64,000 nt of DNA, taken from Candidatus Staskawiczbacteria bacterium. Its GTDB lineage: Bacteria; Patescibacteriota; Minisyncoccia; Minisyncoccales; Staskawiczbacteraceae. Both the position numbers and the translations under genes were made by a program. The stretch lies in contig JBAZYR010000004.1 of assembly GCA_041659225.1 (NCBI GenBank), forward strand, positions 9,867 through 73,866. Direction: 5' to 3'. Every line of letters starts with the position of its first letter. The stretch's first letter is position 1. Shown one piece after another: positions 7,734 through 63,529 of this stretch. Below the pieces are notes generated by a model. The model did no database searches. It had not been told where the DNA came from and saw only the letters and a program-made list of their open reading frames with translations.

Positions 7734-7749
7734 TCGAATAAAATGAGGA

Positions 7750-7778
7750 AGCCCCGGAGCGTTGCTCTGGGGCTTTTC
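7750..7778. terminator. Hairpin terminator between convergent genes
   Basis: 11-bp stem AGCCCCGGAGC / GCTCTGGGGCT (one G-U), 3-nt loop, TTTT tail. Confidence 0.65.
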
Positions 7779-7799
7779 GGTTGAAATGGAGGGAGGGGG

Positions 7800-8159
7800 C
7801 TAGAGAAGCGGGTTCCCAGTAACGTAGTAGAAAGTGATGAGGTTTATCAACCCGGCCAAAAGAATTGCAGTCGCCACAATAACTAGCAGCAGTTTGACGA
7901 TACTGGGGCGGGGTTTTGAGGGAATATACAGAACCTGCTGGAACTTGATCCGAGAGGAGACCATGATGGTCCCAAATCCGGAGAGCCACAGTACGAGTGC
8001 ACCGACACACAAGGTAAGGCAGTTGGCGACGTGGGGCTCGTAGAACATAGCTACCCAAATCGCAGAGATGACCATGCCGATGGCCAGGCAGTAATCGATG
8101 AATCCGATTACGTACAGGGTTCGGCTAGTCCGGTTGGTCGGCAATGCTCTTGCGTTCAT
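7800..8159 (-). CDS. Hypothetical multi-pass membrane protein (GC-richer islet)
   Basis: 119 aa, hydrophobic segments throughout. AAAGGA 8 nt upstream of the ATG. Confidence 0.5.
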   Translation of the reverse strand: MNARALPTNRTSRTLYVIGFIDYCLAIGMVISAIWVAMFYEPHVANCLTLCVGALVLWLSGFGTIMVSSRIKFQQVLYIPSKPRPSIVKLLLVIVATAILLAGLINLITFYYVTGNPLL

Positions 8160-8180
8160 TTTTTTCCTTTCATTACGGGT

Positions 8181-8417
8181 TTAATGTCCGGGTTTGTAGA
8201 AACGGGATTCGTGCCGAGTGTTAACTTTACCTCTCGCGACCTGGATTACCAGGGCGAAAGCGGCGATGGCCATGCCTCCGAAAAAGAGCAAGAAGCCAAT
8301 ATCGAAGCTTTCGGTAGGCTCCCACTCCTCGGAAGGGATCGTGGCGGCTGCGACCATCATTGTTATCGCAGCGACCAGCATCAAGCCGACCAGTAGATCA
8401 AGTAGTTTCCGTCTCAC
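8181..8417 (-). CDS. Hypothetical small two-TM membrane protein (GC-richer islet)
   Basis: GTG at 8417 sits 7 nt after GGAGG (8425-8429, minus strand). Preferred over the TTG at 8444 used by the ORF track. Confidence 0.45.
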   Translation of the reverse strand: MRRKLLDLLVGLMLVAAITMMVAAATIPSEEWEPTESFDIGFLLFFGGMAIAAFALVIQVARGKVNTRHESRFYKPGH

Positions 8418-8481
8418 GTTTTTTCCTCCATGAAATGTTGTCAACGAGCGGAATAGGGTACACCCCTATCTTATTACTATA

Positions 8482-9378
8482 TCACTTGTTTAGGTATTTG
8501 TCAATAGCTGTGATTGCACCCTTTTTATCCTTAATCCACTTAATTCGTTTGTCCTTTTTGAACCATGTCATCTGTCTTTTGGCATAATGTTCTATCTCTT
8601 TTTGTAGCTGTTTGATCATCTCCTCACGATCTAGTTTTCCGCGGATATATCTTGTTACATATCTGTATTCCAGGCCGAACTCTTCCAGGCGCTTCCACGA
8701 AACTCCGGATTTATGGAGCGATTCAACTTCCTCGACCATGCCTTCGTCTAGTCTTTTTATAAGTCTTTTTTCTATCAATTTTTGCAGCGTTTTGGTGTCT
8801 CTCTTTACGCCTAGATATAATGAGCTAAATCCGGGATTTTCAGGCTGGATAGGTGGAACTGGCCGTTTAGACTTTAAAACGATTTCCAGGGCTCGTATAA
8901 GGCGTCTGGGATTGTTTTTATCGATGTCCCCGGCCCTTCTGGGGTCTAATTTAGATAGAATTTTGTATAGCTCAGGAACTGTCTTTTTCTCAAGCTTTTT
9001 TCGCAAAGTTAAGTCAGGCTTAACGTTTGGTATTGATATACCATCTACCACAACTTGGATATAAAAGCCGGTTCCGCCGACTAAAAATGGAACCTTTTTC
9101 TTTTTATAAATTTTATCGATGGCCTTATCGGCAAGTTTTTTGAATTGGACGACATCAAATCTCTTTTTCGGGGAAGCAACATCTAAAAGATAGTGGGGGA
9201 CTCCCTGCATTTCCTTCTTAGTGACTTTCCCTGTCCCGATATTCATGCCTTTATACACCTGCCGCGAGTCAGCAGAAATAATCTCACCGTTAAACTTTTT
9301 AGCTAGCCCAACCGAAAGGTCGGTTTTGCCGGAGGCAGTTGGGCCGAGTATGACGATTATCTTTTTAAGATTTTTCAT
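8482..9378 (-). CDS. miaA: tRNA dimethylallyltransferase
   Basis: P-loop GPTASGKT, ISADSRQVYKGMNIGT. Overlaps the miaB end by 4 nt. Confidence 0.93.
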   Translation of the reverse strand: MKNLKKIIVILGPTASGKTDLSVGLAKKFNGEIISADSRQVYKGMNIGTGKVTKKEMQGVPHYLLDVASPKKRFDVVQFKKLADKAIDKIYKKKKVPFLVGGTGFYIQVVVDGISIPNVKPDLTLRKKLEKKTVPELYKILSKLDPRRAGDIDKNNPRRLIRALEIVLKSKRPVPPIQPENPGFSSLYLGVKRDTKTLQKLIEKRLIKRLDEGMVEEVESLHKSGVSWKRLEEFGLEYRYVTRYIRGKLDREEMIKQLQKEIEHYAKRQMTWFKKDKRIKWIKDKKGAITAIDKYLNK

Positions 9379-17923: not shown

Positions 17924-17976
17924 GTAGGTTTGGGACCTATCCAGGGCGGTAAAGCGCAAAAGTATCTTGTGTTCTG

Positions 17977-19347
17977 TTATCGGCTAACGACTGCGTCAGC
18001 CGGTTTGTTTGTGCTCGCAGCAACCTTTGGGGTCGCTGTGATATTAGGAGGTGCCTTGAGGCAATATGAGAAATTCATTGGAGCCTGACAGAGCTCGTTC
18101 ACCTTTCCGTCGTTCCAGACAAGAAGTGTTCTATTCCGGAAGAGGAAGGTCTTTTCAGCAATCCAGCGGAACTGGTCGCCTATAACTCCGGTCGCTATCG
18201 TTTTCTGTTGGACCTGAATCATGTTATTCAAGGGAATGTAGGGCCAATGTCGCGGCCCAACGTTGTCGCAGTTTGGCTTGTATTCACGTCCAATGTCGCT
18301 CGCCTCTATCCCTCGAAGGATTTCTTGGCTGCTGAATGAAACAACCATTCCTCCGGTGAGACAGGCAAGGGAACCGTCTTTTCCCCAATCCAGGCCATCG
18401 CATGTTTTGAGCAAAATAGGGATTTCCCAGATTCCTGGTTTGGTTCCTGGAACAAATCGGGTCGCAGGGATAGGTGCTCCGCGTTTGAATGACGCAATCG
18501 GCAAAGAAGTTGGGTCGCGGATTTCAATCGGACCCCAACCTATTTCGCTTTGATAGATGAACGCAATCAGCGGTCTGCCGGAAAGGTTTTTTGACCAGGT
18601 AGGAAAGCGGGCATTTCTCTTGATAGAGAACATTCGATGTACATCGCGTTCAGCCGCATATATTCCGCTTATCTTTAGCGACTGAGTTGTCCGGTGTTTC
18701 AGAAGGATCAGCTCCGCCGTGGGCTGCATTTGGAGATCCTGCCAGGTAGCTCGGATGGGGAAGGTTGGCGGGATATATGCTGTGTTCCCGTACACTTCCG
18801 GCACCCCTTTGTTACCTGGGCTTGGCATCACCACAATGGCATTGCAGAAGTCCGGCGCTACGGCGTAAAAAGGATATGCAGCGAAGTTCGTCGGCGTGCC
18901 GTTTACGTTCTGGTCCAATCCCGCGCCTTCTTCCATTAAAACCCATTTGATGTCGTATCGGGTCGTTTCGAAGGAAATCCATCGTCCATCAGAGGACACG
19001 TTCAGATTTCTCGTGTCTGCCGGTGGAGAAGAAGCGGCTGAGCCCTTCTTCGCGGTTGGTTTTCCTCGCTCATACGTCGTGTAGCTGGCCTCTCCGTCGG
19101 GGAGGACTTTCTTCCAAAGTTTGGATCTGTCGGACCAGAATAATGTTGAGCCGTCAACTGAGACCGCCACGGCTTCTTTGATTTGCGTGGCTTTGGTTCC
19201 AGTAGCCAGGCTCGCTTTATTCCCAGTGAAATCCTGGAAAAAAGCATTCTTCCCGTCCGAGTAGATAATTCCGCCCGTGAGGTCCTGGGCCTTTGCGGAC
19301 ATGGCGATTGACAGGAACGTCATCGCGATCACTAGGATTGATCTCAT
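17977..19347 (-). CDS. Hypothetical secreted protein, 456 aa (GC-richer islet)
   Basis: Signal peptide MRSILVIAMTFLSIAMSAKA. GGAGGTGA 3 nt before the ATG. A sample line counts 31/60 GC. Confidence 0.6.
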   Translation of the reverse strand: MRSILVIAMTFLSIAMSAKAQDLTGGIIYSDGKNAFFQDFTGNKASLATGTKATQIKEAVAVSVDGSTLFWSDRSKLWKKVLPDGEASYTTYERGKPTAKKGSAASSPPADTRNLNVSSDGRWISFETTRYDIKWVLMEEGAGLDQNVNGTPTNFAAYPFYAVAPDFCNAIVVMPSPGNKGVPEVYGNTAYIPPTFPIRATWQDLQMQPTAELILLKHRTTQSLKISGIYAAERDVHRMFSIKRNARFPTWSKNLSGRPLIAFIYQSEIGWGPIEIRDPTSLPIASFKRGAPIPATRFVPGTKPGIWEIPILLKTCDGLDWGKDGSLACLTGGMVVSFSSQEILRGIEASDIGREYKPNCDNVGPRHWPYIPLNNMIQVQQKTIATGVIGDQFRWIAEKTFLFRNRTLLVWNDGKVNELCQAPMNFSYCLKAPPNITATPKVAASTNKPADAVVSR

Positions 19348-19422
19348 CGGTCACCTCCATATATTTTGTCAAGGAGACTCTTGCGTTTTGACCCTCCACA
19401 TTAGAGGGGTGTGCTACCTATT

Positions 19423-19431
19423 ATTATACCA
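19423..19431 (-). promoter_or_regulatory. Extended -10 promoter element (TGGTATAAT) for the 456-aa secreted protein gene
   Basis: Reverse complement of attatacca. About 75 nt upstream of the ATG at 19347. Confidence 0.4.
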
Positions 19432-19458
19432 AAAAAGAAATAAAAGTAAAGGTCAATA

Positions 19459-19612
19459 AGTTATCCACACCCTGTATATTTTCCATCAATATTTTAATTG
19501 TGCTACAATAATTTAATAAAAAGTAACGTGTACGTATTTAAAAAGAAGAAATATAGTTATCCACAGCCCACATATATTTTAATTGTGCTACAATAATTGA
19601 ATAAAAAGTAAC
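19459..19612 (+). repeat. Imperfect tandem duplication (~96-nt offset) of a unit made of TTATCCACA plus an extended -10 promoter TGCTACAAT
   Basis: TTATCCACA at 19461-19469 and 19557-19565. ATTTTAATTGTGCTACAATAATT(T/G)AATAAAAAGTAAC at 19491-19527 and 19576-19612. Confidence 0.8.
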
Positions 19613-19623
19613 TAAATATATAT

Positions 19624-20064
19624 ATGAAACAAAGTAACAACACCTACATTATTGTAATAGTCAGTATTGTAGTCTTGTTTGGAATTGGCTGCTTGGTTGG
19701 TTTTAGTTTTGAGAAATCAAGAACCTCTGCTTCCATTGAAAAACTCCAAACTCTATCAAGCGTCCTTAACTCCTTAAGCTCTTCTCAGATAATTGTTTCA
19801 ACTATTGCTTATGGCAGAGTAAAAAGCATTTCTGACTCAACCATTGTTCTGAACCGTGGAGAAGAAGACTTATCCGTAGCCATGATTCCAGATGCTCAGG
19901 TTTACCTGCTCTCAAACAATGGAGGAGATCTTGGTTCACAGAAACAATCTCAGCTAACAGACATTAAAATCGGAGACGACTTAAACATCAGCGTTAAAAT
20001 TCTTCCTGACGGCCAGATACAAGGATTGTCTGCAGTCATATTTCCGCCAATAGTTGCACAATAG
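19624..20064 (+). CDS. Hypothetical N-terminally membrane-anchored protein, 146 aa
   Basis: One N-terminal TM helix. Lies 39 nt upstream of the giant Cys-rich gene, so probably co-transcribed. Confidence 0.55.
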   Translation: MKQSNNTYIIVIVSIVVLFGIGCLVGFSFEKSRTSASIEKLQTLSSVLNSLSSSQIIVSTIAYGRVKSISDSTIVLNRGEEDLSVAMIPDAQVYLLSNNGGDLGSQKQSQLTDIKIGDDLNISVKILPDGQIQGLSAVIFPPIVAQ

Positions 20065-20103
20065 CAATCTCGGAAGTTATCGAACAAAAGGACTTTATCG
20101 ATA

Positions 20104-23100
20104 ATGAAAAAGATAACACAATTTCTAGTCTTAGTAGCATTCTCTTTGCTGGTTTTTGGGTGCGTAAAATATGCGGCTATTGTTGAAGCTACAACCGGAC
20201 AGGAGGTTGCTAATGCAATTTCTGGATTGGAAATAGTAGAGGGGGATATAGTGGATTGGGGATATTGCACCGATGGAATGGGTACCTACGAGTGTGCAGG
20301 TAACGATGGTTGGTGCGGTGGTTATCCTGGCTGCTGGTGTGGCGGTTGCGCTAACCAACCTGATAATTGCGGGAATTTGTCGGGTGGTTGTTTGGCTAAA
20401 GCAGTCGATCTTTGTTGGAACGCAGGAAGTCAAGAAGCTTGGATTACATGCATGGAAGGCCCAGGCTGTCGTCCGATGTGCCTTATACGACCTTGCATGG
20501 CAGATCCTACATCACCCGAATGTAATGCTCAAAATGTAGAGGTAGGAGTCAGTCCTGACACGACAAATGTTTGCGGTAAAATTACAGTTGACCTTACGGC
20601 AAGTCTTGAAGCGATGGCGACATGCCATTATGGTGAACCAGCCGGAGTTTTCGGTTGGGCTAAGTTCTGGAAGGGAACCACCCGTTACCCTGCTAATCTT
20701 TTAATAAATCTTTCAAGAGATTCTAGCAAAGTTGCCGCAGGGCCAATTGGCTGGGATAACTGCCCAATGGCGTCTGAAACCGGAGCAAACTTTTTTTATC
20801 TAGGTGGCGGCACAGAGTCAGCCTCTCCCGAGCACGAGGTATTCAGTATAGAATATATTGCAGATGCTTTCCAAGTAGACGCAACAGCCAGTGTTTCTGC
20901 TACGTTTTCGAAATGCCAAAAAAAACGGCCGGATGATGCCGGGACTTACGACCCAAATTGTTCCTGTAATTCCTGTATAACTGATGAAGACTGCAGGCTA
21001 ACAGCTGCAGGTTGCGGCGGAAGTTCACGATGTTCTGGAGACGGAGAATCTGAAATGGTATGCGGTGAAGGCAACTGTTGCGAATGGAGAGACTGCGGCC
21101 CGCAAACCCAAGAACCCGATGCTTGTTGCGACAATACCCCGACTGACGTAGGCTCAGATGGAAAATGCCGGGAGGCAGATACTTGCGCAGCAGCAAATCA
21201 GAATTCCAAAGGAGAGTGGGGTTGCGGCACATTGTGCGGCGACACCTTTTATTCTGACGGCTGCGAGCTTAGGGCAGCTGGCACACGTCTTACAACCTGT
21301 CCGGCCTTCGGTGATACTGGATTACCATTTTGTTCGTGTACAGCCGGCTGCTACAACAAAAAAATATTGACATCTTTGACAGGTTGCGCCGACTGCCAAT
21401 CTACCGGCGAACTGCGTTGTGGAGGATCAGGATCTGCCAGTCTTTGCGGTAGCGGCTCTCAACCGGCTGGCGTCCAGCACAAGGAAACCAGCCCCAAATG
21501 TGTAGTGAATGGTGGCATAGCCAGTTGTAGCGGCACCACAGTTGAGTGGATAACTGACACCCCTTGCATCCCATATGACCCTAATGAAGCAGACGGCTGT
21601 GTAGATTCAGGAACAAAAGTGTGCCAGGGTCATAAAATTGTTCCAGTGCTCAACTGTAGAAAATGTAAAACAGGGCCCAGCGGTCCCTACTGCGATACAA
21701 CCCCAAAGTATGGCCCTGGCGTGGATTGCTCCGGCTCAACGGTAGACAGCTATACCTTTTGTTCTGGAAAACAGGTAATGCAATTTACAAGAACTTGTGT
21801 GATGGGTTGTCTTAATGGCGGCTGCGTCTTTACATGCACAACCAAAACAGAAGCAGTCGCCACCTGTCCCTACTGCTGCGTTCAGGGCGAGAGCGGAGCT
21901 TCCTGCGCAGGGAACTGCAACGCAGGCGACAGTAGCACGGCTTGCCCTAAATGTGGAACCAAATACTGCGGAGAAAACTGCTCCTGGGGTCCTTGCCAAA
22001 ACATGAAAGACTGCAATCCAGGGCAAACCAAAGGCTGCACCTGCGGAGACACCTGGACCCAGCTTACCTGCGGAGGTGATTGCACCTGGCCTCCGTGCAA
22101 ATGCCACACCCAGTGCATAGGAGGTTACTGCAAGACAGTTCCAGGAGAGGGATCTGACGAGTGTTCGGGCAACGCCGAATGCCAGCATACTGAGTGCGGA
22201 ACATATGATCTGTTCGGTACAACCATTGGAATGTGCATGGCCGTGCTCTCCAAAGGAACAGACCAGTGCACGGTTGGATGTCCTCCTGGCCAAACCAGCT
22301 GTCCTGCTGATTGCAACCATACAGAATGTACCGGTTCCCCAGGCAACCGCAAATGTACCAATGTCCCTTCGCAAGGAACCAATCAATGCGCAACCGCTGA
22401 GGACTGCGATGACTGTACCGGTCCCTGTTGTGAAAGCGATGCCTGCACTCCAGGCCAATCCAGTGACTGCGGAAACTGCGGTCATCAGTCCTGCGGTGCT
22501 GATTGTACAATGGGACCCTGTGTAGAACCGCCAAATGCCTGCACTCCAGGTACTACCCGAATTGCCTGCGGTCAAACTCAAACATGTTCAGCCGGCTGCA
22601 CGTGGTTTGGCAGCAGTTCTGAAGGCTGCAAACCAGGAGAAACCAAGCCTTGCCCTTGCGGCGGTCCGTCATTGCAGTGCGGTGCTGATTGCAAATGGAT
22701 TGGCCAATGTTCAAGCCATAACATATGTTCAGGAACATCCTGTATCTGCGTGACTGGCAGCGGAATGAGCGAGTGCGGACCAGGAAAGGGTTGCTCGCAC
22801 ACAGAGTGCGTTGATGGAACCTGCAAGCTTGTGCCAGGAGCAGGGGCTGATCAATGCGGTGCAGAAACCAAGTGCAACCACAAAGTATGTAACGACGTTA
22901 CTCACCTCTGTATTACCGTTAACGGATCAGGAGAAGACAACTGTCCCAACAACTGCCTGCAGTGTACCCAAGGACAAGTGCGAGATTGCGGTAAATGCGG
23001 GGAACAAACCTGCAACAGCAAAGGAGAGTGGGGGCCTTGTCAAAACGAAGGAGTGTGCGAGTCCGGAGAAACTAAAGACTGCGCCTGCGGAGGGAAACAA

Positions 23101-25293: not shown

Positions 25294-25319
25294 GGGGACA
25301 ATATTCTTACAGTTAAAAC

Positions 25320-25340
25320 AACGCCCCCAAGAGGGGCGTT
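25320..25340 (+). terminator. Hairpin after the giant gene
   Basis: AACGCCCC-caaga-GGGGCGTT. The T tail is weak, and the 3' arm overlaps the next promoter's -35. Confidence 0.45.
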
Positions 25341-25690: not shown

Positions 25691-26125
25691 ATGGCCAGCC
25701 GTCATTTATCAAGGTCAATCGTGATGCAGAGTCTGTACGAATGGGATTTTTACGAAAAAAAAGAAGGCATGTTAGATCCGATTATGGAAAGGAATATCCG
25801 GGATTTAGGTCCAGGACTTGAGGATGTACATTTCGCCTGGGATTTATTAAAAGGAGTTGTCAGTCATATATCAAAGATTGACAAAATTATTGAAAAGGCA
25901 GCGCCAGAATGGCCAATTCTGCAAATACCTATTGTCGACAGAAATGTTTTACGAATCGGTTTGTACGAATTGCTATACAGCAACAAAGATGAAGTTCCGC
26001 CTAAGGTTGCCTTGAATGAAGCAATAGAATTAGCTAAAACATTCGGAGGCGAAAGTTCAGGCAAGTTCATTAATGGTGTTTTAGGATCAGTTTACAAAAA
26101 TTTAGAATTAAAAAAAGAAAAATAG
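25691..26125 (+). CDS. nusB: Transcription antitermination factor NusB
   Basis: [31 protein letters not shown]. 144 aa. Confidence 0.85.
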
Positions 26126-27318: not shown

Positions 27319-27424
27319 AGTTATTTGACATTTTTCAAGATCATGATAGAAAGATGGAGTGTTCGTTTAAAACAGTCACACTCCACATTAACCAACTATA
27401 CGTTACCTGAAAGGAGGCTCGTCC

Positions 27425-28150
27425 ATGGTTCTGACCGATTTTAGAAAAGAAGATCTTCTGAGTATTGATCCAAATGATTTCACGGAGGTAGCGTTATCTC
27501 CGGATGAGATTTGGCATATTTTCACTACCCTAGGCGCTGTCTGGGTTTACGAGGGGGAACCAGATGCCAAAAAGCCGCATGCGGCTTTTACTTCGGGCAA
27601 ATGTTGCAACGGATATATCAGCTGTCGAAAAGTCCTTTGCTATCCGAATCTCTGCGAACTTCTAGCCGTTCAACATGTTAAAGCCTTGCGGCGTTTGGGT
27701 TGGATCGAAAAAGTCGATTGGGTTATAGGTTCCGTTGACAGCGTTGTCACTTGGTCCTATGAGGTCGCTCGAACGCTTCATGCAAGACATGGGTTCTGCG
27801 AAAAAGACCCAGCCGACCCAGAACAAAGGCGGATGATTTGGAAAGAAGAAATTCCGATAGGAGCCGAGGTTTTGTACACCGAAGATCTAGTTATCGCGAA
27901 AGAGACCTCTGAGGTTGCAAAGTCGGCAGTAAGGAAAAGTAATCCGCATCGTCCGATTAATTTCTATCCGTTTATCAGCGCTTTGGTTCATAGACCGGCT
28001 AGTACCGGCCCCTTAGCTACTAACGGGGTTGTCCCTCTCATTTTCCGGGTTTTCCAGACCTGGGAACGGCTTGATTGTCCCTACTGCCATGTTTGCTCCG
28101 CCCGGTTGCATCCCGAGAGAGATTGGGCCAGGCTTCTTGGCCGGGTGTGA
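27425..28150 (+). CDS. Hypothetical protein, possibly phosphoribosyltransferase-like with a degenerate PRPP loop (GC-richer islet)
   Basis: AGGAGG 7 nt before the ATG. Layout resembles PyrE-like PRTases (HAAFTSGK.., VDWVIGS.., AEVLYTEDLVIAKETS) but the PRPP loop is not canonical. A sample line counts 33/60 GC. Confidence 0.45.
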   Translation: MVLTDFRKEDLLSIDPNDFTEVALSPDEIWHIFTTLGAVWVYEGEPDAKKPHAAFTSGKCCNGYISCRKVLCYPNLCELLAVQHVKALRRLGWIEKVDWVIGSVDSVVTWSYEVARTLHARHGFCEKDPADPEQRRMIWKEEIPIGAEVLYTEDLVIAKETSEVAKSAVRKSNPHRPINFYPFISALVHRPASTGPLATNGVVPLIFRVFQTWERLDCPYCHVCSARLHPERDWARLLGRV

Positions 28151-28160: not shown

Positions 28161-28199
28161 AAAAAAGTAGCCGGCTACACAGGTGTAGTTCGGCTTTTT
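28161..28199. terminator. Bidirectional hairpin terminator between convergent genes
   Basis: A-run, AGCCGGCTACAC / GTGTAGTTCGGCT stem, T-run. Confidence 0.6.
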
Positions 28200-28810: not shown

Positions 28811-28878
28811 TTTTTGTCCTCCCTATACAAGCCAGTGATTCGTATACAAGATTATACTACAAATTTTTTAATAGTAAA

Positions 28879-51075: not shown

Positions 51076-51840
51076 TTATTTTGGTTGCTCTTGCTCCAGT
51101 TTTCTAAACGCTTTTATAATTCCATCCATTCTGCCGTCCATTATTCCTTCAATATCGTGCCATGATTTTCCGATTCTATGGTCGGTAATCCTATCCTGAG
51201 GAAAATTATATGTCCTCATTTTTTCAGCACGCTTGGCCCAGCCGATTTGCTCGTTTCTGGCTCCTGAAATCTGTGATTGCTCTTCGGCAATTTTTCGTTC
51301 CAGGAGCTTGGCGGATAAAATTGATAGCGCGCTTTCTTTATTTTGCATTTGATTTCTTTCGGATTGCGAGGTAACTACTAAACCGGTCGGGATATGCACG
51401 ATTCTTATCGCGCTTTCAGTTTTATTAACATACTGGCCTCCGGGGCCTGATGCCTTGAATGTTGTAATTTTGAGATCGCTGGGGTTTATAATAAACTCCG
51501 TCTTTTTAGGTTTAGGGAGAATAGCAACAGTTATAGTAGAGGTGTGGACTCTGCCGGATTTTTCGGTTTTAGGTATCCTTTGAACCCGGTGTACCCCAGC
51601 CTCATTTTTCATGTCGTCGTAAATACCGGCACCGTTTAATTCGAAAATAATTTCTTTATAGCCTCCTAAGTCGCTTTGATTGGAATCTAGGATTTTCTGG
51701 CCCCAGCCTTTGGATTGCCCGAATTTAGAATACATTCTAAATAAATCACGGGCAAATAAACCGGCTTCGTCTCCGCCGGTTCCAGCGCGGATTTCAACTA
51801 TGATTGCATCTATGTCCTTTTTAGGTAATTGTTCTTGCAT
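51076..51840 (-). CDS. prfA: Peptide chain release factor 1 lacking N-terminal domain 1 (254 aa)
   Basis: [38 protein letters not shown] (PxT-type), [16 protein letters not shown] (GGQ). An in-frame TAG lies 15 nt upstream of the ATG. Confidence 0.85.
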
Positions 51841-55550: not shown

Positions 55551-56445
55551 CTACTAATACTCAGCGTATTAGATATTTTTTTTGAGAGTTTGATCCTAGC
55601 TCAGGGTGAACGCTGGTAACGTGGATAAGGCATGCAAGTCGAACGGGCTGTAGCAATACAGTCAGTGGCGAACGGGTTAGTAACACGTAGGTACCAACCT
55701 CCGAGATGAGAATAACCCATCGAAAGATGGGCTAATACTCAATAGTCCCACTCCGCAAGGAAATGGGTAAAGGTTCGCAAGAGCCGCTCAGAGATGGGCC
55801 TGCGGCCTATCAGCTTGTTGGCAGGGTAAAAGCCTACCAAGGCTATGACGGGTAGGGGGCGTGAGAGCGTGTCCCCCAACAATGGCACTGCGACACGGGC
55901 CATACTCCTACGGGAGGCTGCAGTCGAGAATCTTCCACAATGGGCGAAAGCCTGATGGAGCGACGTTACGTGAATGAAGAAGCCCTTCGGGGTGTAAAAT
56001 TCTTTTTTAGGGGAGGAAGTTGCCTTCGGGTAACTGACAGTACCTTAAGAATAAGGGGATCCTAATTCTGTGCCAGCAGGAGCGGTAATACAGAATCCCC
56101 GAGCGTTACCCGGAATTACTGGGCGTAAAGGGTCCGTAGGTGGTTAAGATAGTCTTTGGTTAAAACTCATCGGCTCAACCTTTGAGCTGCCGAAGATACT
56201 TCTTAACTCGAGGACGTTAGAGGCTAACGGAACCGACGGTGTAGGGGTGAAATCCGTTGATATCGTCGGGAACACCAAAAGCGAAGGCAGTTAGCTGGGA
56301 CGATCCTGACACTGAGGGACGAAAGCGTGGGGATCAAAAAGGATTAGATACCCTTGTAGTCCACGCTGTAAACGATGACCACTAGCTATTGGCAGTGTCG
56401 ACCCTGTCGGTGGCGAAGCTAACGCGTTAAGTGATCCGCCTGGGA

Positions 56446-56477
<32 letters not shown>

Positions 56478-56611
56478 AGACGGGGACTCACACAAGCGGT
56501 GGACCATGTGGCTCAATTCGACAACAAACGAAGAACCTTACCAGGGCTTGAAATTCCGTTGAAATCCCGATGAAAGTTGGGACCCCCACAAGGCAGCGGA
56601 ACAGGTACTGC

Positions 56612-57328
56612 ATGGTTGATGCTTTACTTTCTTATTCACAATCTGAAAGAAAGCACACGACCCCTTCTCGAGTAATCGAGATTGCAAAACCAGCTCATAA
56701 CGGTGAAACCTTCAAGTTTTATGTTAAAATTAATATACAAACTAATGGTAATACCGTGGGAAGTATAAGTACTAATTTTTGTAATTTTTTCTCTAAAATA
56801 GAAGATTCGTATATCTTAGGTCTTTGGTGCGCGGATAGCTATTGGTGGTCTAGTTCAGTCGGATTAAGCAATACCGATGACAAATTAATTGGTGAATTCA
56901 GAAAATTTTTGAAGAAAATTTTCCCTGAAGAAAGAATCAAATTTAATCGAAACCATATTTTCGTCAATAGTCGTCCGCTACTCAGAGAATTTATATCGGC
57001 AAAGGCGAGTTTAGACAGGTTGGAAGACCCTGATATAATTAAAGCATATTTCGCCGGACGGTTTGACGGTGATGGCTCGATTGATAAAAACCTAAGAAAT
57101 GATTGCAGGATAGTTTATGGGAGAAAGGAGGAAGCTGAAATGGATAAGAAACTTCTTGGGAAGATTAGAATTAGTAACACTAAAATTTATTACTATAAAG
57201 GAGCAAGAACATTTTGCCTTTATATTTCTAGATACCAGGCAAAGGAATTCCTTGGAAATATTTATCCTTATTCAATAAAATTACAGAAATTAGTACTTGT
57301 ACCCCGTAGAGACTTAGTTTTCCACTAA
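56612..57328 (+). CDS. LAGLIDADG-family homing endonuclease (two-motif, monomeric type)
   Basis: ILGLWCADSYWW and KAYFAGRFDGDGSI motifs. The only upstream in-frame ATG outside pure rRNA sequence is the ATG of the exon GCATGG at the junction. Confidence 0.8.
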   Translation: MVDALLSYSQSERKHTTPSRVIEIAKPAHNGETFKFYVKINIQTNGNTVGSISTNFCNFFSKIEDSYILGLWCADSYWWSSSVGLSNTDDKLIGEFRKFLKKIFPEERIKFNRNHIFVNSRPLLREFISAKASLDRLEDPDIIKAYFAGRFDGDGSIDKNLRNDCRIVYGRKEEAEMDKKLLGKIRISNTKIYYYKGARTFCLYISRYQAKEFLGNIYPYSIKLQKLVLVPRRDLVFH

Positions 57329-57442
57329 CAAAGGACGGAGAACTTAATAGCTTACCATGCTATTACACGCTGGTCCCCTAATCCCGCTTTGCGGGACGGG
57401 TGATGGTATAGTCCATACTTTTGGAAACAAGAGAACAATATG
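56618..57442 (+). mobile_element. Intervening sequence / intron-like insertion in 16S carrying a homing endonuclease gene
   Basis: Conserved GCATGGYTGTCGTCAGC is split as GCATGGTT | insert | GTCGTCAGC. The boundary is ambiguous by a few nt because ATGGT is repeated at both junctions. Confidence 0.8.
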
Positions 57443-57981
57443 GTCGTCAGCTCGTGTCTTGAGACGTACCGTTAATTCGGGTAACGAGCGCAACCCTTGT
57501 CTTATGTTTTATATGTCATAAGAGACTGCCCGGGATAACTGGGAGGAAGGTGAGGATGACGCCAAATCAGCATGGTCCTTTGATGCCCTGGGCCGCACAC
57601 GTGGTACAATGGCCGGTACAATGGGTTTGCCAACCCGAAAGGGGGAGCTAATCCCACCAAAACCGGTCTCAGTTCGGATTGAGGGCTGAAACCCGCCCTC
57701 ATGAAGCCGGAATCGCTAGTAATCGCCGATCAGCTACGCGGCGATGAATATGTTCCTGAGTCTTGTACTCACCGCCCGTCACGCCAAGCGAGCTGGGAAC
57801 AGCCGAAATTCCTCGCAAGGGGACTTAAGCTGGGCTCAGTAAGAGGGGCGAAGTCGTAACAAGGCACGGGTAGCGGAAGCTGCTCGTGGATCAATTTTTT
57901 TTATTTTTTTGTCGACTTAGGTTGAAATCGAAAATTTGGATTTCAACTTAAAAGCGTTTGGGGTGAATCGCTTGAAATTCA

Positions 57982-58086: not shown

Positions 58087-58380
58087 ATGATATGGAAATA
58101 TTTTTCTTATTTTCTTGTAGGATTTATAGGGTTTGCGATTGGACGAGTAGGGCATATTCTTGGGGGACAGGTTGCTTGGATTCCGCACCATTGGATATTC
58201 GGATTAATACTTCTGTCTGCCGGGTTAGTATGTTTACTCTTTAAGCGAGGTAGAAACATCGGATATTATCTTATATTTTTCGGCGCAGGTGTGTTTATAA
58301 GCGACTTTAGGGATTTCACGCTTGGAAGAGTGTGGGAATTGGATGATGTAACAATATTAAAATTTTGGGGAGTAGATTAA
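58087..58380 (+). CDS. Hypothetical small membrane protein between 16S and tRNA-Ala
   Basis: 97 aa with three hydrophobic helices. Confidence 0.5.
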   Translation: MIWKYFSYFLVGFIGFAIGRVGHILGGQVAWIPHHWIFGLILLSAGLVCLLFKRGRNIGYYLIFFGAGVFISDFRDFTLGRVWELDDVTILKFWGVD

Positions 58381-58388: not shown

Positions 58389-58460
58389 GGGCCCTTAGTT
58401 CAGTGGTAGAACGCCTCATTTGCAATGAGGAGATCACCGGTTCGAGTCCGGTAGGGTCCA
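58389..58460 (+). tRNA. tRNA-Ala (anticodon UGC)
   Basis: Acceptor GGGCCCT/AGGGTCC with the G3:U70 identity pair, anticodon loop TTTGCAA, T loop TTCGAGT. CCA not encoded. Confidence 0.9.
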
Positions 58461-58554
58461 CAATTTGGCGCAACATTTTGGACACAAGCAAGTTGTAAAA
58501 AGCCTGTTTTTGTTTGAAGTGTGGATAGTATTGACACGTGTTGCAGATTATTCA

Positions 58555-58563
58555 TGGTACAAT
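58555..58563 (+). promoter_or_regulatory. Extended -10 element TGGTACAAT placed for a leaderless transcript
   Basis: The -10 ends 6 nt before the A of the ATG at 58570. Confidence 0.4.
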
Positions 58564-58569
58564 GCAGTC

Positions 58570-61539
58570 ATGCGTATATATCCCATTTTATTCGTATTAG
58601 CCATCGTTGCCCTCTTGGTTGCCATCGGCATTCTTTTCAAGGTTATTCCTTGGATGCAACCTGCCTCCGTGCTTAACCCGACCTCCGTAATGCTTAATTT
58701 ATTGTTCAACGGAAACATGGATGATTCCTCCGGTCATGGAAACAACGCTGTCTGCTCCGGAACCTGTCCGTCATACCTGGCCAGCGGGGGTTTACTCGGT
58801 AGCGGTGCTTACTCTTTTGACGGCACTACCAACTATTTGGCCGTTGCCAATAATTCCAACATCAATCTTACTGACAATTTCAGCTTGACGGCCTGGGTTA
58901 AGACCAACTCTGATCCGGCGACTGATGAATGGCAGGGGATTTTGGTTAAAGGTACAAATGATAGCCAGCGGTCCTGGAGTCTTTACCTCCACTACAAAGC
59001 CGTGGAAATTCAATGGTTAAACGGCACTTGGCAATCTTTCAGCGCAGCCTCGGCAAACATTCAATCTAACCAATGGTATCAAATTGTTTACACTAAGAAC
59101 GGAGCCAATCAGGCGATTTATCTGAATGGCGTTCCTTTGTCGACCTCAGGCAGCTCTGCAACCATGATTGCCAATAATGATCCGCTGTATATCGGTGGCA
59201 ATGCCATTTATCCTGAGGAACGATTCAATGGCGTTATCGACAGCTTGCGGATCGTCAACCAGGTTCTTTCACCGGCCGAAGTAAGTACTCTTTATCAGGA
59301 GGACCAAACACAACCTCCTTCTGGCGATACCAATTGCGTTAAAGCAGACGTTAATACTAGTGGTGAAGTTGATAATTTTGACGTTCTTTTTGTTCGAGGC
59401 CAATTAAGGTGTGATATAGGTGCTGGTGCACCTAATTGTGTCAAAGCAGACGTTAATACTAGCGGTAAAGTTGATAATTTTGACGTTCTTTTTGTTCGAG
59501 GCCAAATGGGCTGCACCGTGCCGCAACAGTACTCCATTGTCGCCACGGCTGGCGCTGGTGGGACAATCGATCCTATTGGCACGGTCACTGTCAACTCAGG
59601 AGATACCAAGACCTTTGCTATTAGTCCTGATGCAACCCATCAAATAAACCAGGTGGTAGTTGATGGCCTCGAGAAAGGAGCAATTTCGACTTTCACTTTT
59701 TCCGATATAACTGTCAATCATACTATCAGCGCAAGTTTTAGTTCAGTACCCCAAACGCAGTTGAAGCCAATCGCTCGGTGGGACACCGTGCCTTACCAGA
59801 GGATCGATCCAGCTCACCCCTTGAATCTATCAGTAGTCGCTTTTTCAAAATATGGAATTAACCGTGTCGTCTTCAAGATAAGCGGCGGTGGTTATACCGG
59901 CCTAGACAAAACAGCAACCGCAATGTCGCTCAATCCCCAAACCGGAGTTTGGGAATACTGGGTGCCATTAACGGCCGCCGAATTCGATACTAACAGTGCC
60001 ATCACCGTCGAAGCTACCGTGTATGGAAACGATGGCGGAGTCAGAGACAAAAATACTAACGCTGCTGTTTACGGTTCCGGCCTTAGTCCCGTCACTTTGG
60101 TGGTCGTACCGCAGTCTAACGCCGACCAGTATCAGAGAGCTTATGCTTGGGTTGATAATACAAATGGAAACGATGGTGTCACTAATGCCGTGAGCACAAG
60201 CGTCAATGATCCCGGCGCAGGTAAATATTTCAAGACTATCAACGCGGCTGCCCGGGCCATCCAAACCTATCGTGGCGGTAACGCGGACGGCGCGATGATT
60301 TATGTAAAGAGCGGAACTTACAACACTGCCGGCAGCAACAGCGGGTTCGTTAGGGGCAGCAACGAGTGGCTGACCATTTCGGCAGCACCTGGTTTGGCGA
60401 GAACTGATGTCGTTATCACAGCTGCTAGTGGAATTTATAATATCGAGCGGGCACATGTCCAAGGCCTTACTCTGAGCAATACCTCGAATGGTGCAAGTGT
60501 GATCAAGAATTGTTATCCCGGAGCGAGTTGCGATCCAGCCAACGTTAAGGTCTGGATTGATAACTCTCACATACTTGGCATTGGCCGCTGGCCGGAGGGA
60601 TCTGCAAACGGCGGAATTTACACCGGGCCGGTCAACCCCGATATCCCTGAAGTTTATTGGACCGATAGCGAAGTCAATAAATCAAACTTTGGCGTTTACA
60701 CTCAAAATACGGTCTTGGTCCGGGGCTTGTACATTCACGAAATTAGCAATGATCCCTTCCAGGCGGCACCACTGGTTATTAATACCCGCGTCGACGATGT
60801 CCGCGGAAATTATTTAGACTCACTGGGTAACAAACAACCGCATGCCGATCTTTTCCAGCCCGGGGCAGACGCCGATAATTTTATTATGTACAACGTACGC
60901 GCCACCGGCCTGCATTACGATATTTTTTGGAGTAATATCTATGCTGATGCCGCTACGGCTACCGGCATTGCCTTAGTTAATGTCTTCGCCGAGATTGACC
61001 TGGATCCTAATCCGGCCTATGGCAATAGGCCTGTTGTCTTCGGCGGGATTCTCGGCCAGTACAATCATCTTTTAATGTGGCATAACACCTATATATGGGG
61101 GGCGGGATCCATCCCAAGCGATCATTTGCCTCTAGCGATTTATCTTACCAAAAGTTATCCGGGAAATTTTCGACAATATTCCGTCATCAATAGTTCCTTC
61201 CGGGGAAATTTGTTCGATGCGCTCGGAATCAACAATCTCGACAACGGCGAGCCTTGGTACCAAGAACCTTATCTGACAAACCACGGAGACGAATTTTTGG
61301 ACAACCATTTTGTAAACGTTAACCCGACCGGAGATTATTACCATGGTGCTGCTTACGGTTTAAGATACTCGTCCGGTGATCCGCAAATTAATCGGAATCT
61401 CCAGTCGCCAACAATCGGACAGCCATTGAGCGCCGGTTCACCCTTGGTTAATCGAGAGAATGTTCCTCCTGTACCTGCCGACGCCAATGGCAAAGCGCGG
61501 TCAACTACCGGAGCAACAATTGGGGCATTCGAGTTCTAG
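58570..61539 (+). CDS. Membrane-anchored surface protein: LamG/concanavalin-like lectin domain, two dockerin-like repeats, InlB-B-repeat-like domain, probable beta-helix C-terminal region
   Basis: TM anchor MRIYPILFVLAIVALLVAIGILF. LamG-like FDGTTNYLAV..FSLTAWVK..LYIGGN..FNGVIDSLRI. 2x NCVKADVNTSG(E/K)VDNFDVLFVRGQ. YSIVATAGAGGTIDP..TISASF. Confidence 0.8.
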   Translation: MRIYPILFVLAIVALLVAIGILFKVIPWMQPASVLNPTSVMLNLLFNGNMDDSSGHGNNAVCSGTCPSYLASGGLLGSGAYSFDGTTNYLAVANNSNINLTDNFSLTAWVKTNSDPATDEWQGILVKGTNDSQRSWSLYLHYKAVEIQWLNGTWQSFSAASANIQSNQWYQIVYTKNGANQAIYLNGVPLSTSGSSATMIANNDPLYIGGNAIYPEERFNGVIDSLRIVNQVLSPAEVSTLYQEDQTQPPSGDTNCVKADVNTSGEVDNFDVLFVRGQLRCDIGAGAPNCVKADVNTSGKVDNFDVLFVRGQMGCTVPQQYSIVATAGAGGTIDPIGTVTVNSGDTKTFAISPDATHQINQVVVDGLEKGAISTFTFSDITVNHTISASFSSVPQTQLKPIARWDTVPYQRIDPAHPLNLSVVAFSKYGINRVVFKISGGGYTGLDKTATAMSLNPQTGVWEYWVPLTAAEFDTNSAITVEATVYGNDGGVRDKNTNAAVYGSGLSPVTLVVVPQSNADQYQRAYAWVDNTNGNDGVTNAVSTSVNDPGAGKYFKTINAAARAIQTYRGGNADGAMIYVKSGTYNTAGSNSGFVRGSNEWLTISAAPGLARTDVVITAASGIYNIERAHVQGLTLSNTSNGASVIKNCYPGASCDPANVKVWIDNSHILGIGRWPEGSANGGIYTGPVNPDIPEVYWTDSEVNKSNFGVYTQNTVLVRGLYIHEISNDPFQAAPLVINTRVDDVRGNYLDSLGNKQPHADLFQPGADADNFIMYNVRATGLHYDIFWSNIYADAATATGIALVNVFAEIDLDPNPAYGNRPVVFGGILGQYNHLLMWHNTYIWGAGSIPSDHLPLAIYLTKSYPGNFRQYSVINSSFRGNLFDALGINNLDNGEPWYQEPYLTNHGDEFLDNHFVNVNPTGDYYHGAAYGLRYSSGDPQINRNLQSPTIGQPLSAGSPLVNRENVPPVPADANGKARSTTGATIGAFEF
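59332..59507 (+). repeat. Two near-identical 74-nt direct repeats with 102-nt period encoding dockerin/EF-hand-like segments
   Basis: Copies at 59332-59405 and 59434-59507 differ at only a few positions. Confidence 0.85.
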
Positions 61540-61582: not shown

Positions 61583-61675
61583 GTTTGACAACTTATCATA
61601 TCTATTGTAGTAATAAAATAGTACATTTTATTCCCAAACTGATATCTAATTACGCAAGCTTAGAAAGGAGCTGTG

Positions 61676-62740
61676 ATGAGTGAATCTCTACACGAGGGTG
61701 CGATGACCGCAATGGTAACGCCTTTTACGGATCATTCCCGAATTGATTGGAACGGATTTGCTAAGAATATTCAATTCCAAAGGTCTCAAGGGATTCGCTG
61801 TATCGTTCCCGTCGGAACGACTGGCGAATCGCCCACGATTACGCCGACCGAACATCGCGATTTGATTCATGCCGCGATTAGCTGCACGCGGGGAACAGGC
61901 ATGGATATTCTCCCCGGTTGTGGGTCAAACTCGACCGAGGAGGCGATGGATTATATTGAAGTCGCTAACCGGCTTGGCTGTCGCGGAGCTCTGCTTGTGG
62001 ATCCGTATTATAACGGGCCGTCGTCGATCGAAATTCGCGATGAATATTATGGGGTGCTCGCCGTCAATAATCAGAATCCTAACTTTTTGCTTGTTCCATA
62101 CATAATCCCGGGACGAACTGGTTGTTCGCTTGCGCCCGAGGATTTGGTACAGCTGGCCTTGAATTATCCTCATAGCTTCCGGGCCGTTAAAGAAGCGACC
62201 GGTGATCTTAACCGAATGCTACGTACCCGAAGCCTGTTGGTGGCCTCTGGGATTCGCGACTTCCAGATTATTTCGGGCGACGACGACAAAACTGCTGAGA
62301 TGATTACCTCCGACGTTCTTTCCTGCGGGGTTATCTCTGTCACTTCTAATATCGCTCCGGCTGCCGTCCAACAGATGTGCATGCTGTTACTCCGCGGGGG
62401 CGAGAACGAAGCCTTGGCTATACGCAACCAGCTAGCACCTTTGTTCAAGGTGGTTACATTTCTAGCCGATCGATTCATAAAGGGTGGGGCGACGGTTACA
62501 GATAAGTTCCGGAACCCGCTTCCTGTGAAGATTATGATGGATGTACTCGGAATGCCTGCTGGCTCATGCCGTAGGCCTTTGGGTCGGATGACCGCTTCTG
62601 GTATCGGAATTTTGATGCAAGCTCTGCAGACTGTGTGGAAAGAAAGCCCTTGGATATTAAGACCCATCGAAGAGTTCTACGGCGTCGACATCCAATCTCG
62701 CATTAACGATCATGAACTTTGGGAAAAACATCAGTATTAA
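61676..62740 (+). CDS. DapA/NAL-family class I aldolase, 4-hydroxy-tetrahydrodipicolinate synthase-like (GC-richer islet)
   Basis: VPVGTTGESPT, DPYYNGPS, FRAVKEATGD (Schiff-base Lys context). AAAGGAG 5 nt before the ATG. About 60 aa longer than typical DapA. Confidence 0.75.
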   Translation: MSESLHEGAMTAMVTPFTDHSRIDWNGFAKNIQFQRSQGIRCIVPVGTTGESPTITPTEHRDLIHAAISCTRGTGMDILPGCGSNSTEEAMDYIEVANRLGCRGALLVDPYYNGPSSIEIRDEYYGVLAVNNQNPNFLLVPYIIPGRTGCSLAPEDLVQLALNYPHSFRAVKEATGDLNRMLRTRSLLVASGIRDFQIISGDDDKTAEMITSDVLSCGVISVTSNIAPAAVQQMCMLLLRGGENEALAIRNQLAPLFKVVTFLADRFIKGGATVTDKFRNPLPVKIMMDVLGMPAGSCRRPLGRMTASGIGILMQALQTVWKESPWILRPIEEFYGVDIQSRINDHELWEKHQY

Positions 62741-62765
62741 CAAATCATCAGTATTAACGAATTAT

Positions 62766-62790
62766 GGGAGGCTCGCGCCTCTCTTTTTTT
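62766..62790 (+). terminator. Rho-independent terminator
   Basis: GGGAGGC-tcgc-GCCTCTC followed by T7. Confidence 0.7.
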
Positions 62791-62870
62791 GTCGATTTGA
62801 CATTTTCGTCACAAACTGGTACTTTGAGGCTAGCCGTTTGACAAGTTTTCTATGGAAGGAGAATAGCACC

Positions 62871-63464
62871 GTGAAAGATATCTGTGTTTGGTTTGTCGCT
62901 ATTTCTTCAATCTTTTTTTCACTTTGTTATGTCTTCCAGATTTGGAGAAGAAAAGCCACCCCAACGCTTTCTACTTGGATCATATTCTTGGTAGGATGCT
63001 GCTTGAGTTTTTCAACTTATGTTGTAGCAGCTAACAAGGATATTAAGTCAGGAGTTCTTAATACGGTTGACCTTACCTATGTGTCGATTATTCTATTAGC
63101 CATACTTCTATGGGGCAAGCACGAGGTGAGACTCAAGTCATTCGAAAAATGGTATTTGATCGGGGCGGTAGCAATCATGGTATATGGCCTTGTAACCGGC
63201 AATGCTTGGACCTCAAATGTTATGACTCAAATACTTATGAGCTTCGCATATTTTCCGATGTTCCATAAGCTCATAAGTCAAAAGAAAAATACGGAATCAT
63301 TTTTCGCTTGGATTCCCGCAGCCGTCAATGCTTTGGTTGCTCTATATCCTGCAATCCACGACGGTAATACATTGGCGGTAATCTACGCTACTCGAGCTTT
63401 CAGTCTTTCCTTAACAACCGCGCTGATAATGGCATACTATCAATTAAAGGATTTTAAAAAATAA
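62871..63464 (+). CDS. Hypothetical multi-pass membrane protein, 197 aa (GC-richer islet)
   Basis: GTG start 8 nt after GGAAGGAGA, preferred over the tracked ATG at 62712. Six or seven hydrophobic helices. Confidence 0.55.
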   Translation: MKDICVWFVAISSIFFSLCYVFQIWRRKATPTLSTWIIFLVGCCLSFSTYVVAANKDIKSGVLNTVDLTYVSIILLAILLWGKHEVRLKSFEKWYLIGAVAIMVYGLVTGNAWTSNVMTQILMSFAYFPMFHKLISQKKNTESFFAWIPAAVNALVALYPAIHDGNTLAVIYATRAFSLSLTTALIMAYYQLKDFKK

Positions 63465-63492
63465 ACTCTTGTGGCCGACACGGAGTTTTTTT
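63465..63492 (+). terminator. Hairpin terminator
   Basis: CTCTTGTG / CACCGGAG imperfect stem followed by T7. Confidence 0.5.
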
Positions 63493-63529
63493 CATTGTAT
63501 TCAGCGTAAAAAAATGATATTAGAAACAT

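Follow-up and report, generated by a model that had tools for sequence, protein, structure and literature searches.

Strong Shine-Dalgarno sites in gene cassettes of mixed age in a Parcubacteria genome whose 16S rRNA lacks an anti-Shine-Dalgarno sequence

Pairing between the Shine-Dalgarno (SD) site of a messenger RNA and the anti-SD of the 16S rRNA is the textbook route of bacterial start-codon choice, and lineages without this pairing test how necessary it is. We analyzed a gene-dense stretch of 64 kb (the window) on contig JBAZYR010000004.1 of a Candidatus Staskawiczbacteria bacterium, a member of the Parcubacteria (candidate phyla radiation (CPR)/Patescibacteria) with a genome of at least 785 kb. 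The 16S rRNA encoded here ends without an anti-SD, and a minority of genes in the window nonetheless carries strong SD sites. Where do these genes come from, and do their sites still do anything? The initial annotation of the window took them for small GC-rich islets acquired from SD-using donors. A feature for which we found no earlier report is that anti-SD-less genomes keep a small class of genes with perfect SD sites, in at least one enzyme family across very deep divergence.

SD-led genes form a distinct class

We scored SD strength as the pairing of the 20-nt region upstream of each gene with the canonical anti-SD, ACCUCCUUA. The division that the initial annotation had drawn between islet genes and their neighbors is borne out when all genes are scored: the distribution is bimodal, with seven genes at -7.9 kcal/mol or below (starts at 28810(-), 27425, 33735, 19347(-), 8417(-), 41952 and 61676) and the remaining ~54 at -6.2 kcal/mol or above. 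A strong site stands before any ATG of the window by chance at a rate of 3.1%, giving a binomial P(≥7/61) of 0.003. Start corrections placed 62871 (GTG) behind GGAAGGAGA and 8417 (GTG, in segment A) behind GGAGGA. With corrected starts, nine genes and one micro-ORF (short open reading frame) unit have AAGGAG(G) 5-9 nt from the start codon, and the motif logo is aaAGGAG(G/A). The earlier statement that a GGAGG-type site precedes every start in these segments holds, at 5-9 nt, for nearly all of them, the sole weak site among the listed genes being the AAAGGA of 7800-8159(-). The SD-led units are as follows, with dG in kcal/mol and GC3 the GC content of third codon positions.

8181-8417, minus strand: small membrane protein, 78 aa, GTG start; SD GGAGGA at 8424-8429, dG -9.3; promoter TTGACA-17-TATAGT at ~8504-8476; GC 0.53; GC3 excess z=3.5
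7800-8159, minus strand: second small membrane protein of the 8181-8417 unit, 119 aa; weak AAAGGA, dG -5.6; GC3 0.67, z=5.6; bidirectional terminator hairpin at ~7745-7775
17977-19347, minus strand: secreted/unknown protein, 456 aa; SD GGAGGTGA at 19351-19358, dG -10.6; z=5.5
27425-28150, plus strand: divergent orotate-phosphoribosyltransferase-like (pyrE-like) protein, 241 aa; SD AGGAGG at 27412-27417, dG -11.6; promoter TTGACA-17-TAGAAA, leader ~65 nt
28199-28810, minus strand: CDP-alcohol phosphatidyltransferase, 203 aa; SD GGGAGGA at 28817-28823, dG -11.9; -10 box TATAAT, leader ~45 nt
31287-31922, minus strand: micro-ORF unit; perfect promoter at 31922-31893 (12/12); terminator at ~31290-31315
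33735-35270, plus strand: B12-binding radical S-adenosylmethionine (radical-SAM) protein, 511 aa; SD AAGGAGG at 33721-33727, dG -11.6; promoter TTGACT-17-TTAAAA; terminator upstream at 33643-33668
41952-42635, plus strand: hypothetical protein, 227 aa, between gap and pduL; SD GGAAGGAGA at 41936-41944, dG -8.8; promoter TTGACA at 41857 (11/12), with a terminator before it at 41824-41849
61676-62740, plus strand: DapA (4-hydroxy-tetrahydrodipicolinate synthase), 354 aa; SD AAAGGAG at 61664-61670, dG -7.9; TIGR00674, 207.7 bits against a cutoff of 206.15; promoter TTGACA-17-TAGTAA, leader ~70 nt
62871-63464, plus strand: membrane protein, 197 aa, GTG start; SD GGAAGGAGA at 62854-62862; GC 0.39; own TTGACA promoter at ~62788

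These cassettes share one layout. The terminator of the preceding gene is followed by a TTGACA-type -35 and TAnnnT -10 promoter, a leader of 25-80 nt, AAGGAG(G), a spacer of 5-9 nt, the start codon, the gene and a terminator, so that stand-alone cassettes with their own promoters and terminators are present as originally described. Three of the best four promoter/terminator matches between 26.8 and 43 kb belong to SD-led units. The cassette products are accessory (pyrE-like, CDP-alcohol transferase, B12 radical SAM, DapA, and small membrane or secreted proteins), and the 456-aa protein had no match in Pfam, NCBIfam or PHROG. SD-led genes are more open at their starts than within the gene body (-6.8 vs -11.4 kcal/mol). 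Native genes have no SD and are AT-rich upstream. In several, 6-9 nt separate a -10 box from the ATG, a spacing that provisionally suggests leaderless mRNAs; this statement comes from individual readings, the automated promoter scan being too crude for classifying leaderless genes.

The SD-led genes are also atypical in composition. Against a native GC of 0.401, the seven segments of the initial annotation have GC of 0.517 (A), 0.508 (B), 0.451 (D), 0.498 (E), 0.467 (F), 0.456 (G) and 0.454 (H), with z=2.6-6.9, each above the maximum of native windows of equal size. The estimate of 50-55% GC is right for A, B and E (~0.50) and too high for D, F, G and H (0.45-0.47). After correction for amino-acid content, the GC3 excess has z=2.9-5.6 in six of the eight SD genes tested, the same six that fit native codon usage most poorly (lowest codon log-likelihood), and is weak (z ~1) for 27425 and 41952.

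GC-richness and SD sites are nevertheless separable. Two larger GC-rich genes without an SD had been omitted from the first list:

20104-25293, plus strand: PKD-domain surface protein, 1729 aa; GC 0.515, no SD, native codons (z=1.5)
58571-61539, plus strand: LamG/dockerin protein; GC 0.48, no SD

The GC excess of the 1729-aa gene comes from its amino-acid content, and the LamG/dockerin gene has a promoter of leaderless type, TTGACA-17-TGGTACAAT-6-ATG. GC-rich genes are therefore not always SD-led, and the membrane gene at 62871-63464 provides the converse case, SD-led at a GC of only 0.39.

The 16S rRNA lacks an anti-SD here and across the clade

The 16S rRNA gene (55578-57901, plus strand; Rfam 1267 bits, model positions 1-1533) is interrupted by an insertion of ~760 nt that encodes a LAGLIDADG protein at 56570-57328 (LAGLIDADG_3 domain). 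Its 3' end reads ...GCTGCTCGTGGATCA and then ATTTTTTTTTATTTTTTTG, such that GGATCA is followed by ATTTTTTTTT (as RNA, GGAUCA-AUUUUUUU). Neither this end nor the following 500 nt contains a CCTCC anti-SD, and the initial annotation was correct in describing a 16S without one.

The trait extends to relatives. We designate loci from relatives by L-numbers (L004, L073 and so on); the genes in them are simple longest-ORF calls. Using homologs of the intron protein, we retrieved 16S 3' ends from four relatives (L129, L131, L132 and L133), and CCTCC is missing from all four. The sequence past GGAUCA varies among the five 16S genes, those of relatives including GGATCATTACATTTT (L133), GGATCATTCAATTT (L132) and GGATGGAAAATATT (L129). 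Both L133 and L129 are farther from the window than L073 is. A candidate for an anti-SD displaced 3' of the 16S gene, the ...CACCTTAAAG of the relatives ~70-90 nt past GGATCA, resembled a degenerate tail. It forms the 3' strand of a hairpin in the spacer (TTCACCTATTCG in the window), and a displaced anti-SD is unsupported.

Loss of the anti-SD in this group is old, clade-wide and previously published: according to Tsurumaki et al. (2022, RNA 28:1041; PMC9297842), just 48% of Parcubacteria 16S genes have the anti-SD motif, and its absence overlaps the group lacking uL1. In the window, nusG-rplK is not followed by rplA. The rplK gene (2362-2784) precedes genes for dCMP deaminase, tmk and thyX (2362-3338 in all), and none of rplA, rplJ and rplL is at the usual place after rplK, the locus examined within the 64-kb window. 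This arrangement is consistent with the uL1-lacking Parcubacteria group. The window thus matches the published genomes in a 16S without CCTCCT and in an rplK without rplA after it; the accessible part of PMC9297842 reports the rRNA trait only, and the conserved SD-led minority is the feature that the present case adds. That paper was the sole match for Parcubacteria and the anti-SD, and the literature searched yielded no account of SD-led genes in CPR bacteria without an anti-SD.

In the window the 16S gene and tRNA-Ala are followed by the LamG/dockerin gene instead of a 23S gene (58389-61539). The 3-kb stretch after tRNA-Ala, considered as a possible 23S, is this protein gene and not rRNA. 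A 97-aa membrane ORF (58087-58380) lies between 16S and tRNA-Ala.

The SD motif is conserved across distant relatives

A metagenome scan returned 23 distinct Parcubacterial radical-SAM loci, in which we counted GGAG at a spacer of 4-10 nt after start correction. GGAG lies 5-9 nt from the start in 20-21 of 23 radical-SAM orthologs, compared with 58 of 818 other genes (7%) at the same loci (Fisher p=2.8e-19). These orthologs are mutually 46-73% identical, and five are syntenic with the window. The leader sequence around the motif has diverged and GGAG has been kept, which argues that an unselected motif of 4-7 nt would not have survived. The exceptions are two Nealsonbacteria-type orthologs with GAAAGGAA(C/T)AGAAA, still a purine tract.

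Strong SD sites precede 13 of 23 radical-SAM genes (57%) as opposed to 0-6% in housekeeping families:

rnc, 1/35
nusB, 1/31
L32, 1/17
dnaE, 0/13
rnhB, 0/13
S16, 0/10

Other SD-led families in relatives are purD (3/3 relatives) and pyrF (in L073), and on one contig, L133, an anti-SD-less 16S gene occurs together with a gene preceded by AAAAGGAGGTGATGAAAATG. More broadly, median pairing in 37 RNase III-centered loci from relatives is ~-1 kcal/mol, and a strong SD precedes only 38 of 446 genes. The radical-SAM family has a mean GC3 excess over neighboring genes of +0.086. Neither the SD nor the GC3 excess, then, simply marks recent arrival, and "not yet ameliorated", as the initial annotation described the signals, cannot account for a site kept across such divergence. 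The site, kept across very distant relatives in at least one gene, probably still does something.

Cassettes differ in age and origin

Comparison with syntenic relatives divides the cassettes into two groups. The first is absent at the matching junctions. Genes rnhB and rpmF adjoin in L004, L005, L006 and L017 and are 7.4 kb apart in the window, where the 456-aa gene lies within the intervening stretch (17924-25338) that relatives lack. Similarly, gap and pduL are contiguous in L073, L045 and L050 and separated in the window by the 227-aa gene, which confirms the proposed islet between them, and the CDP-alcohol transferase gene is not at the matching L073 junction. These three cassettes are insertions relative to the syntenic relatives, an arrangement that fits horizontal acquisition. 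Homologs of the 227-aa protein form 554 cluster representatives.

DapA also looks transferred, judging by its homologs. Its nearest relatives, 48-56% identical, are one other Staskawiczbacteria and many Armatimonadota and Caldiserica, and an exact look-up of the protein matched no record. In the other Staskawiczbacteria (L127), dapA is at a different location, again GC-rich, and preceded by a decayed GAAAGAGAGAG. Among relatives generally, strong SD sites precede 12.8% of singletons and 2.6% of conserved families.

The second group consists of old residents. Three units, the radical-SAM gene, the pyrE-like gene and the micro-ORF unit, occupy positions conserved in relatives. Homologs of the radical-SAM protein number more than 1900, and all named top matches (58-62% identity) are Parcubacteria; the order rSAM-trxB-eno-gpmA-trx-grx-gap-pduL is kept in L045/L048, L047, L049, L050 and L073. 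A pyrE-like homolog of 44% identity occupies the same place in L073, upstream of ftsZ and after pyrD and pyrF. The L073 pyrE-like gene and pyrF are GC-rich with GAAAAGGAGA upstream of both, and pyrD has a weak site (dG -5.6).

The micro-ORF unit contains two short reading frames on the minus strand:

31552-31647, minus strand: 31-aa ORF (MRKRKGNLARDPKKLLPANLSVHSAANLANC), with GAGGAGTGA
31362-31421, minus strand: 19-aa ORF, with AAGGAG

It also contains AGGAGGTGATG at 31530-31520, a 10-11-nt match to the canonical 16S tail. Its positional homolog in L047 (121-847, minus strand) has the boxA-like element described below and AGGAGGTGATG in common with it, and in L133 (~6390-5950, minus strand) a similar leader lies ahead of a Cys-rich small protein and a 66-aa protein. 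A known RNA family was rejected for this unit, the best Rfam match being 19 bits against a gathering score of 100.

The proposal of repeated small-scale acquisition consequently survives in part. It fits the 456-aa, CDP-alcohol transferase, 227-aa and DapA genes, and the first three (17977-19347, 28199-28810 and 41952-42635) are absent from the syntenic positions in relatives. It is not supported for the radical-SAM, pyrE-like and micro-ORF units (33735-35270, 27425-28150 and 31287-31922), which are present there; for these, "not yet ameliorated" fails on the conserved positions that the initial annotation had itself named as counting against its proposal. Homology gives a mixed picture for DapA, whose nearest relatives combine Staskawiczbacteria with non-CPR bacteria; the named top matches of the radical-SAM gene lie within the Parcubacteria. 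We found no terminal inverted repeats, target-site duplications or flanking repeats above chance at the cassette borders, and no integrase or PHROG match for the islets. Mobile-element borders and a phage origin were rejected on these grounds.

Three observations touch individual loci. The spacer between the 456-aa gene and a 146-aa gene contains a 39-nt direct repeat (19489-19527 and 19574-19612; 97% identical, 85-nt period) that includes TTGTGCTACAAT and looks like a duplicated promoter region. The dapA stop codon is spanned by a 17-nt tandem duplication at 62725-62758 (AAAACATCAGTATTAAC / AAATCATCAGTATTAAC). In L050, a xylose-isomerase-like TIM-barrel gene (7150-8187; GC 0.645, GC3 0.86, genome GC 0.43) with GGGGGAAGGAGA upstream directly follows the radical-SAM gene, a clear case of fresh high-GC import into a relative.

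A boxA-like element recurs in SD-led leaders

Radical-SAM leaders have a common G(G/C/T)TC(C/T)TT(T/G)A(A/C)AA right behind the -10 box. In L072 it is GCTCTTTAACA, an exact match to GYTCTTTAANA, the boxA consensus, which is gamma-proteobacterial; most radical-SAM leaders have one or two mismatches to this consensus, and the window copies one to two or more. The element in SD-led leaders approximates GYTCTTTRAMAA, and the same motif occurs in the rRNA leaders of relatives. Copies in the window are:

8438-8449: GCTCGTTGACAA
~19366-19380: GTCTCCTTGACAAAA
27361-27372: GTTCGTTTAAAA
31833-31821, minus strand: AGCACCTTGAAAA
33710-33722: GGTCCTTTGAAAA
62832-62844: AGCCGTTTGACAA

A weight matrix derived from the radical-SAM copies of the element has its top matches in rRNA leaders, AGTTCTTTGAAAA in L133 (8590) and CGCTCTTTGAAAA in L129 (8703). 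Scores of at least 10 occur before 12% of SD genes outside the radical-SAM family versus 3% (p=0.0045), with a matrix that is not very specific and also matches coding sequence. The window encodes nusB at 25691-26125. In the E. coli suhB leader, 6 nt separate boxA from the SD, and translation is repressed by Nus factors (Baniulyte et al. 2017, PMC5725501). The leaders described here are similar in having a GYTCTTTAANA-like element less than 50 nt from the start codon and separated from the SD by a few nt. They differ in that the window copies carry one to two or more mismatches and are putative elements. As a lead, the boxA-like element suggests that Nus factors are involved at a small number of mRNAs.

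A hairpin acting as an anti-SD in cis was considered as well, because most leaders fold with GGAG against an upstream CUUU/UCCU tract. Pairing probabilities equal those of shuffled leaders (radical SAM, 0.50 vs 0.48, p=0.43; other leaders, 0.46 vs 0.43), and this candidate was rejected.

How could SD sites persist without an anti-SD?

The reading we prefer, and to which we assign roughly even chances, is that this genome has two classes of start, that its SD cassettes are of mixed age, and that the SD-like block is selected in the old residents. This Parcubacteria clade lost its 16S anti-SD long ago, and its native genes start without an SD. The minority class is made up of leadered, stand-alone cassettes with a sigma-70 promoter, often a boxA-like element, and AAGGAG(G). 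Some were inserted after the split from the nearest sampled relatives, with horizontal transfer from SD-using bacteria as the probable route, and others are old residents whose SD-like block would be held by purifying selection; a motif under such selection would, for that reason, be functional. It may mark the start of translation on leadered mRNAs or serve in their regulation, with a reader other than a 16S CCUCC tail, and translation itself may proceed via the accessibility of the start site. The more specific idea that AAGGAG(G) is a selected, working start signal, often with a boxA-like element and read by something such as another rRNA segment or a protein of the 30S platform, is less likely than not.

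Several points weigh against this reading. We know of no mechanism by which a CCUCC-less ribosome would read GGAGG at canonical spacing. The logo is what selection by the canonical anti-SD (CCUCCUUU) would give, and equally fits a donor origin or a hidden anti-SD. Motifs have decayed in the two Nealsonbacteria-type orthologs and in L127 dapA, as expected of relics. The anti-SD status of L047, L048, L050 and L073, the syntenic radical-SAM genomes, is assigned by parsimony. Deep sampling covers the radical-SAM family, the other families being represented by two to three genomes, and the longest-ORF gene calls in relatives are simple ones.

If all islets were recent imports from SD-using, higher-GC donors, their SD sites would be nonfunctional remnants on which decay has yet to act. 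Genomic islets that were acquired horizontally and keep an unameliorated composition are a general concept, and the window resembles them in its atypical GC and codon usage, its self-contained promoters and terminators, the three cassettes absent from relatives' junctions, and the Armatimonadota and Caldiserica among the nearest DapA homologs. The excess of SD genes among lineage-specific genes and the SD-bearing import in L050 point the same way. The window differs from such islets in lacking mobility genes and border repeats and in having at least three old units with conserved signals, and its 62871 membrane gene is SD-led at native GC. Retention of GGAG in nearly all radical-SAM orthologs despite their divergence refutes recent import as a complete explanation, and we consider it unlikely. 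Chimeric assembly, or chance SD matches combined with amino-acid-driven GC, has in its favor that GC1 and GC2 (first and second codon positions) supply much of the GC excess and that the excess of the 1729-aa gene is compositional. Junctions are, however, identical (99.99-100%) in an NCBI metagenome-assembled genome (MAG), the 785-kb contig k141_522868 of ENA ERZ27249449 and Logan contigs, in which window positions 7977-29347 and 31952-52635 were matched, and a chimera of the kind the initial annotation had raised as a concern is excluded. The strong sites exceed chance expectation, GC3 excess survives amino-acid correction, and the same pattern recurs in relatives (Mann-Whitney U, p=2.5e-6), so that an artefact is effectively refuted and its probability negligible.

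Two further explanations concern the anti-SD itself. The sites could be relics of an SD-poor, anti-SD-bearing ancestor resembling Bacteroidia, left undecayed after several recent and independent losses. The differing sequences past GGAUCA in the five 16S genes, the decayed motifs in relatives and the agreement of the logo with the canonical tail would suit this history, but it requires at least four to five independent losses within one clade, all nine window sites are intact, and L133 and L129 are both anti-SD-less while more distant from the window than L073. The published distribution (PMC9297842) is a coherent subgroup overlapping uL1 loss. On balance such a history seems quite improbable. 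It is very improbable that an anti-SD is hidden elsewhere, in a second 16S gene or a separate CCUCC-bearing 3' fragment, with a subpopulation of ribosomes reading the SD genes. Canonical spacing, the logo and the extended AGGAGGTGATG matches in the window, L047 and L133 would be explained, and the analysis covered 64 kb out of 785 kb or more of genome. Still, the window has one 16S gene with no CCTCC in the 500 nt beyond, the 16S genes of relatives also lack it, and members of the anti-SD-less group usually have a single rRNA operon.

Known systems resemble our preferred reading of two start classes in part. Bacteroidia have SD-blind ribosomes and a single strong-SD gene, rpsU (PMC7797042, PMC9976891, PMC13000453). 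As in the window, a nearly SD-free genome keeps a strong conserved SD at few genes, there for regulation. In Bacteroidia, however, the anti-SD is kept and sequestered by bS21, bS18 and bS6, whereas here the sequence itself is absent, and the SD-led gene there is rpsU, in contrast to the accessory enzymes of the window. No rpsU was found in the window, where the SD-led genes are for enzymes and membrane proteins. E. coli ribosomes with an altered anti-SD still initiate at correct sites, as Saito, Green and Buskirk (2020, eLife, PMC7043885) report, and the translation of islet genes, an open question in the initial annotation, is less acute than it was put. Anti-SD-independent initiation of this kind, as described there, accounts for translation of SD-led imports and agrees with the open start regions of the window; it does not account for conservation of GGAG.

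If the site is functional, it would constitute a second way of reading an SD. If it is not, these genomes would provide a natural clock by which to time how orphaned SD sites decay, and the combination of SD, leader and promoter would mark laterally acquired CPR metabolic genes, for example those for pyrimidines, purines, lysine and lipids.

Additional features of the window

The nearest relatives of the window RNase III are Portnoybacteria and Nealsonbacteria MAGs (66-72% identity). The end of eno contains a perfect TTGACA-18-TATAAT promoter (38635-38710), 43 nt before gpmA. This native, AT-rich, leadered gene has a weak GAGGA 6 nt from its ATG, and L073 gpmA has no such site.

The trxB gene (35369-36289) is full-length, with 75% identity to its L073 ortholog, and has an in-frame TAA at 35546-35548 where relatives encode Leu. 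The SRR6484324 Logan assembly has TTA at the stop base, the sole difference in 20.7 kb; the TAA reflects a nonsense variant at strain level or else an error in the consensus. A minus-strand ORF at 35318-35569 is a shadow of trxB. Two type IV pilin-like paralogs with an N_methyl motif (36264-36782 and 36888-37436) lie between trxB and eno, an insertion when compared with L073.

A prfB frameshift site was considered as an internal SD test and rejected, the release-factor gene (51076-51840, minus strand) having a plain start without a frameshift site. Its product is 254 aa long, with the PCRF domain beginning from profile position 96, and the L133 release factor is likewise short at 253 aa.

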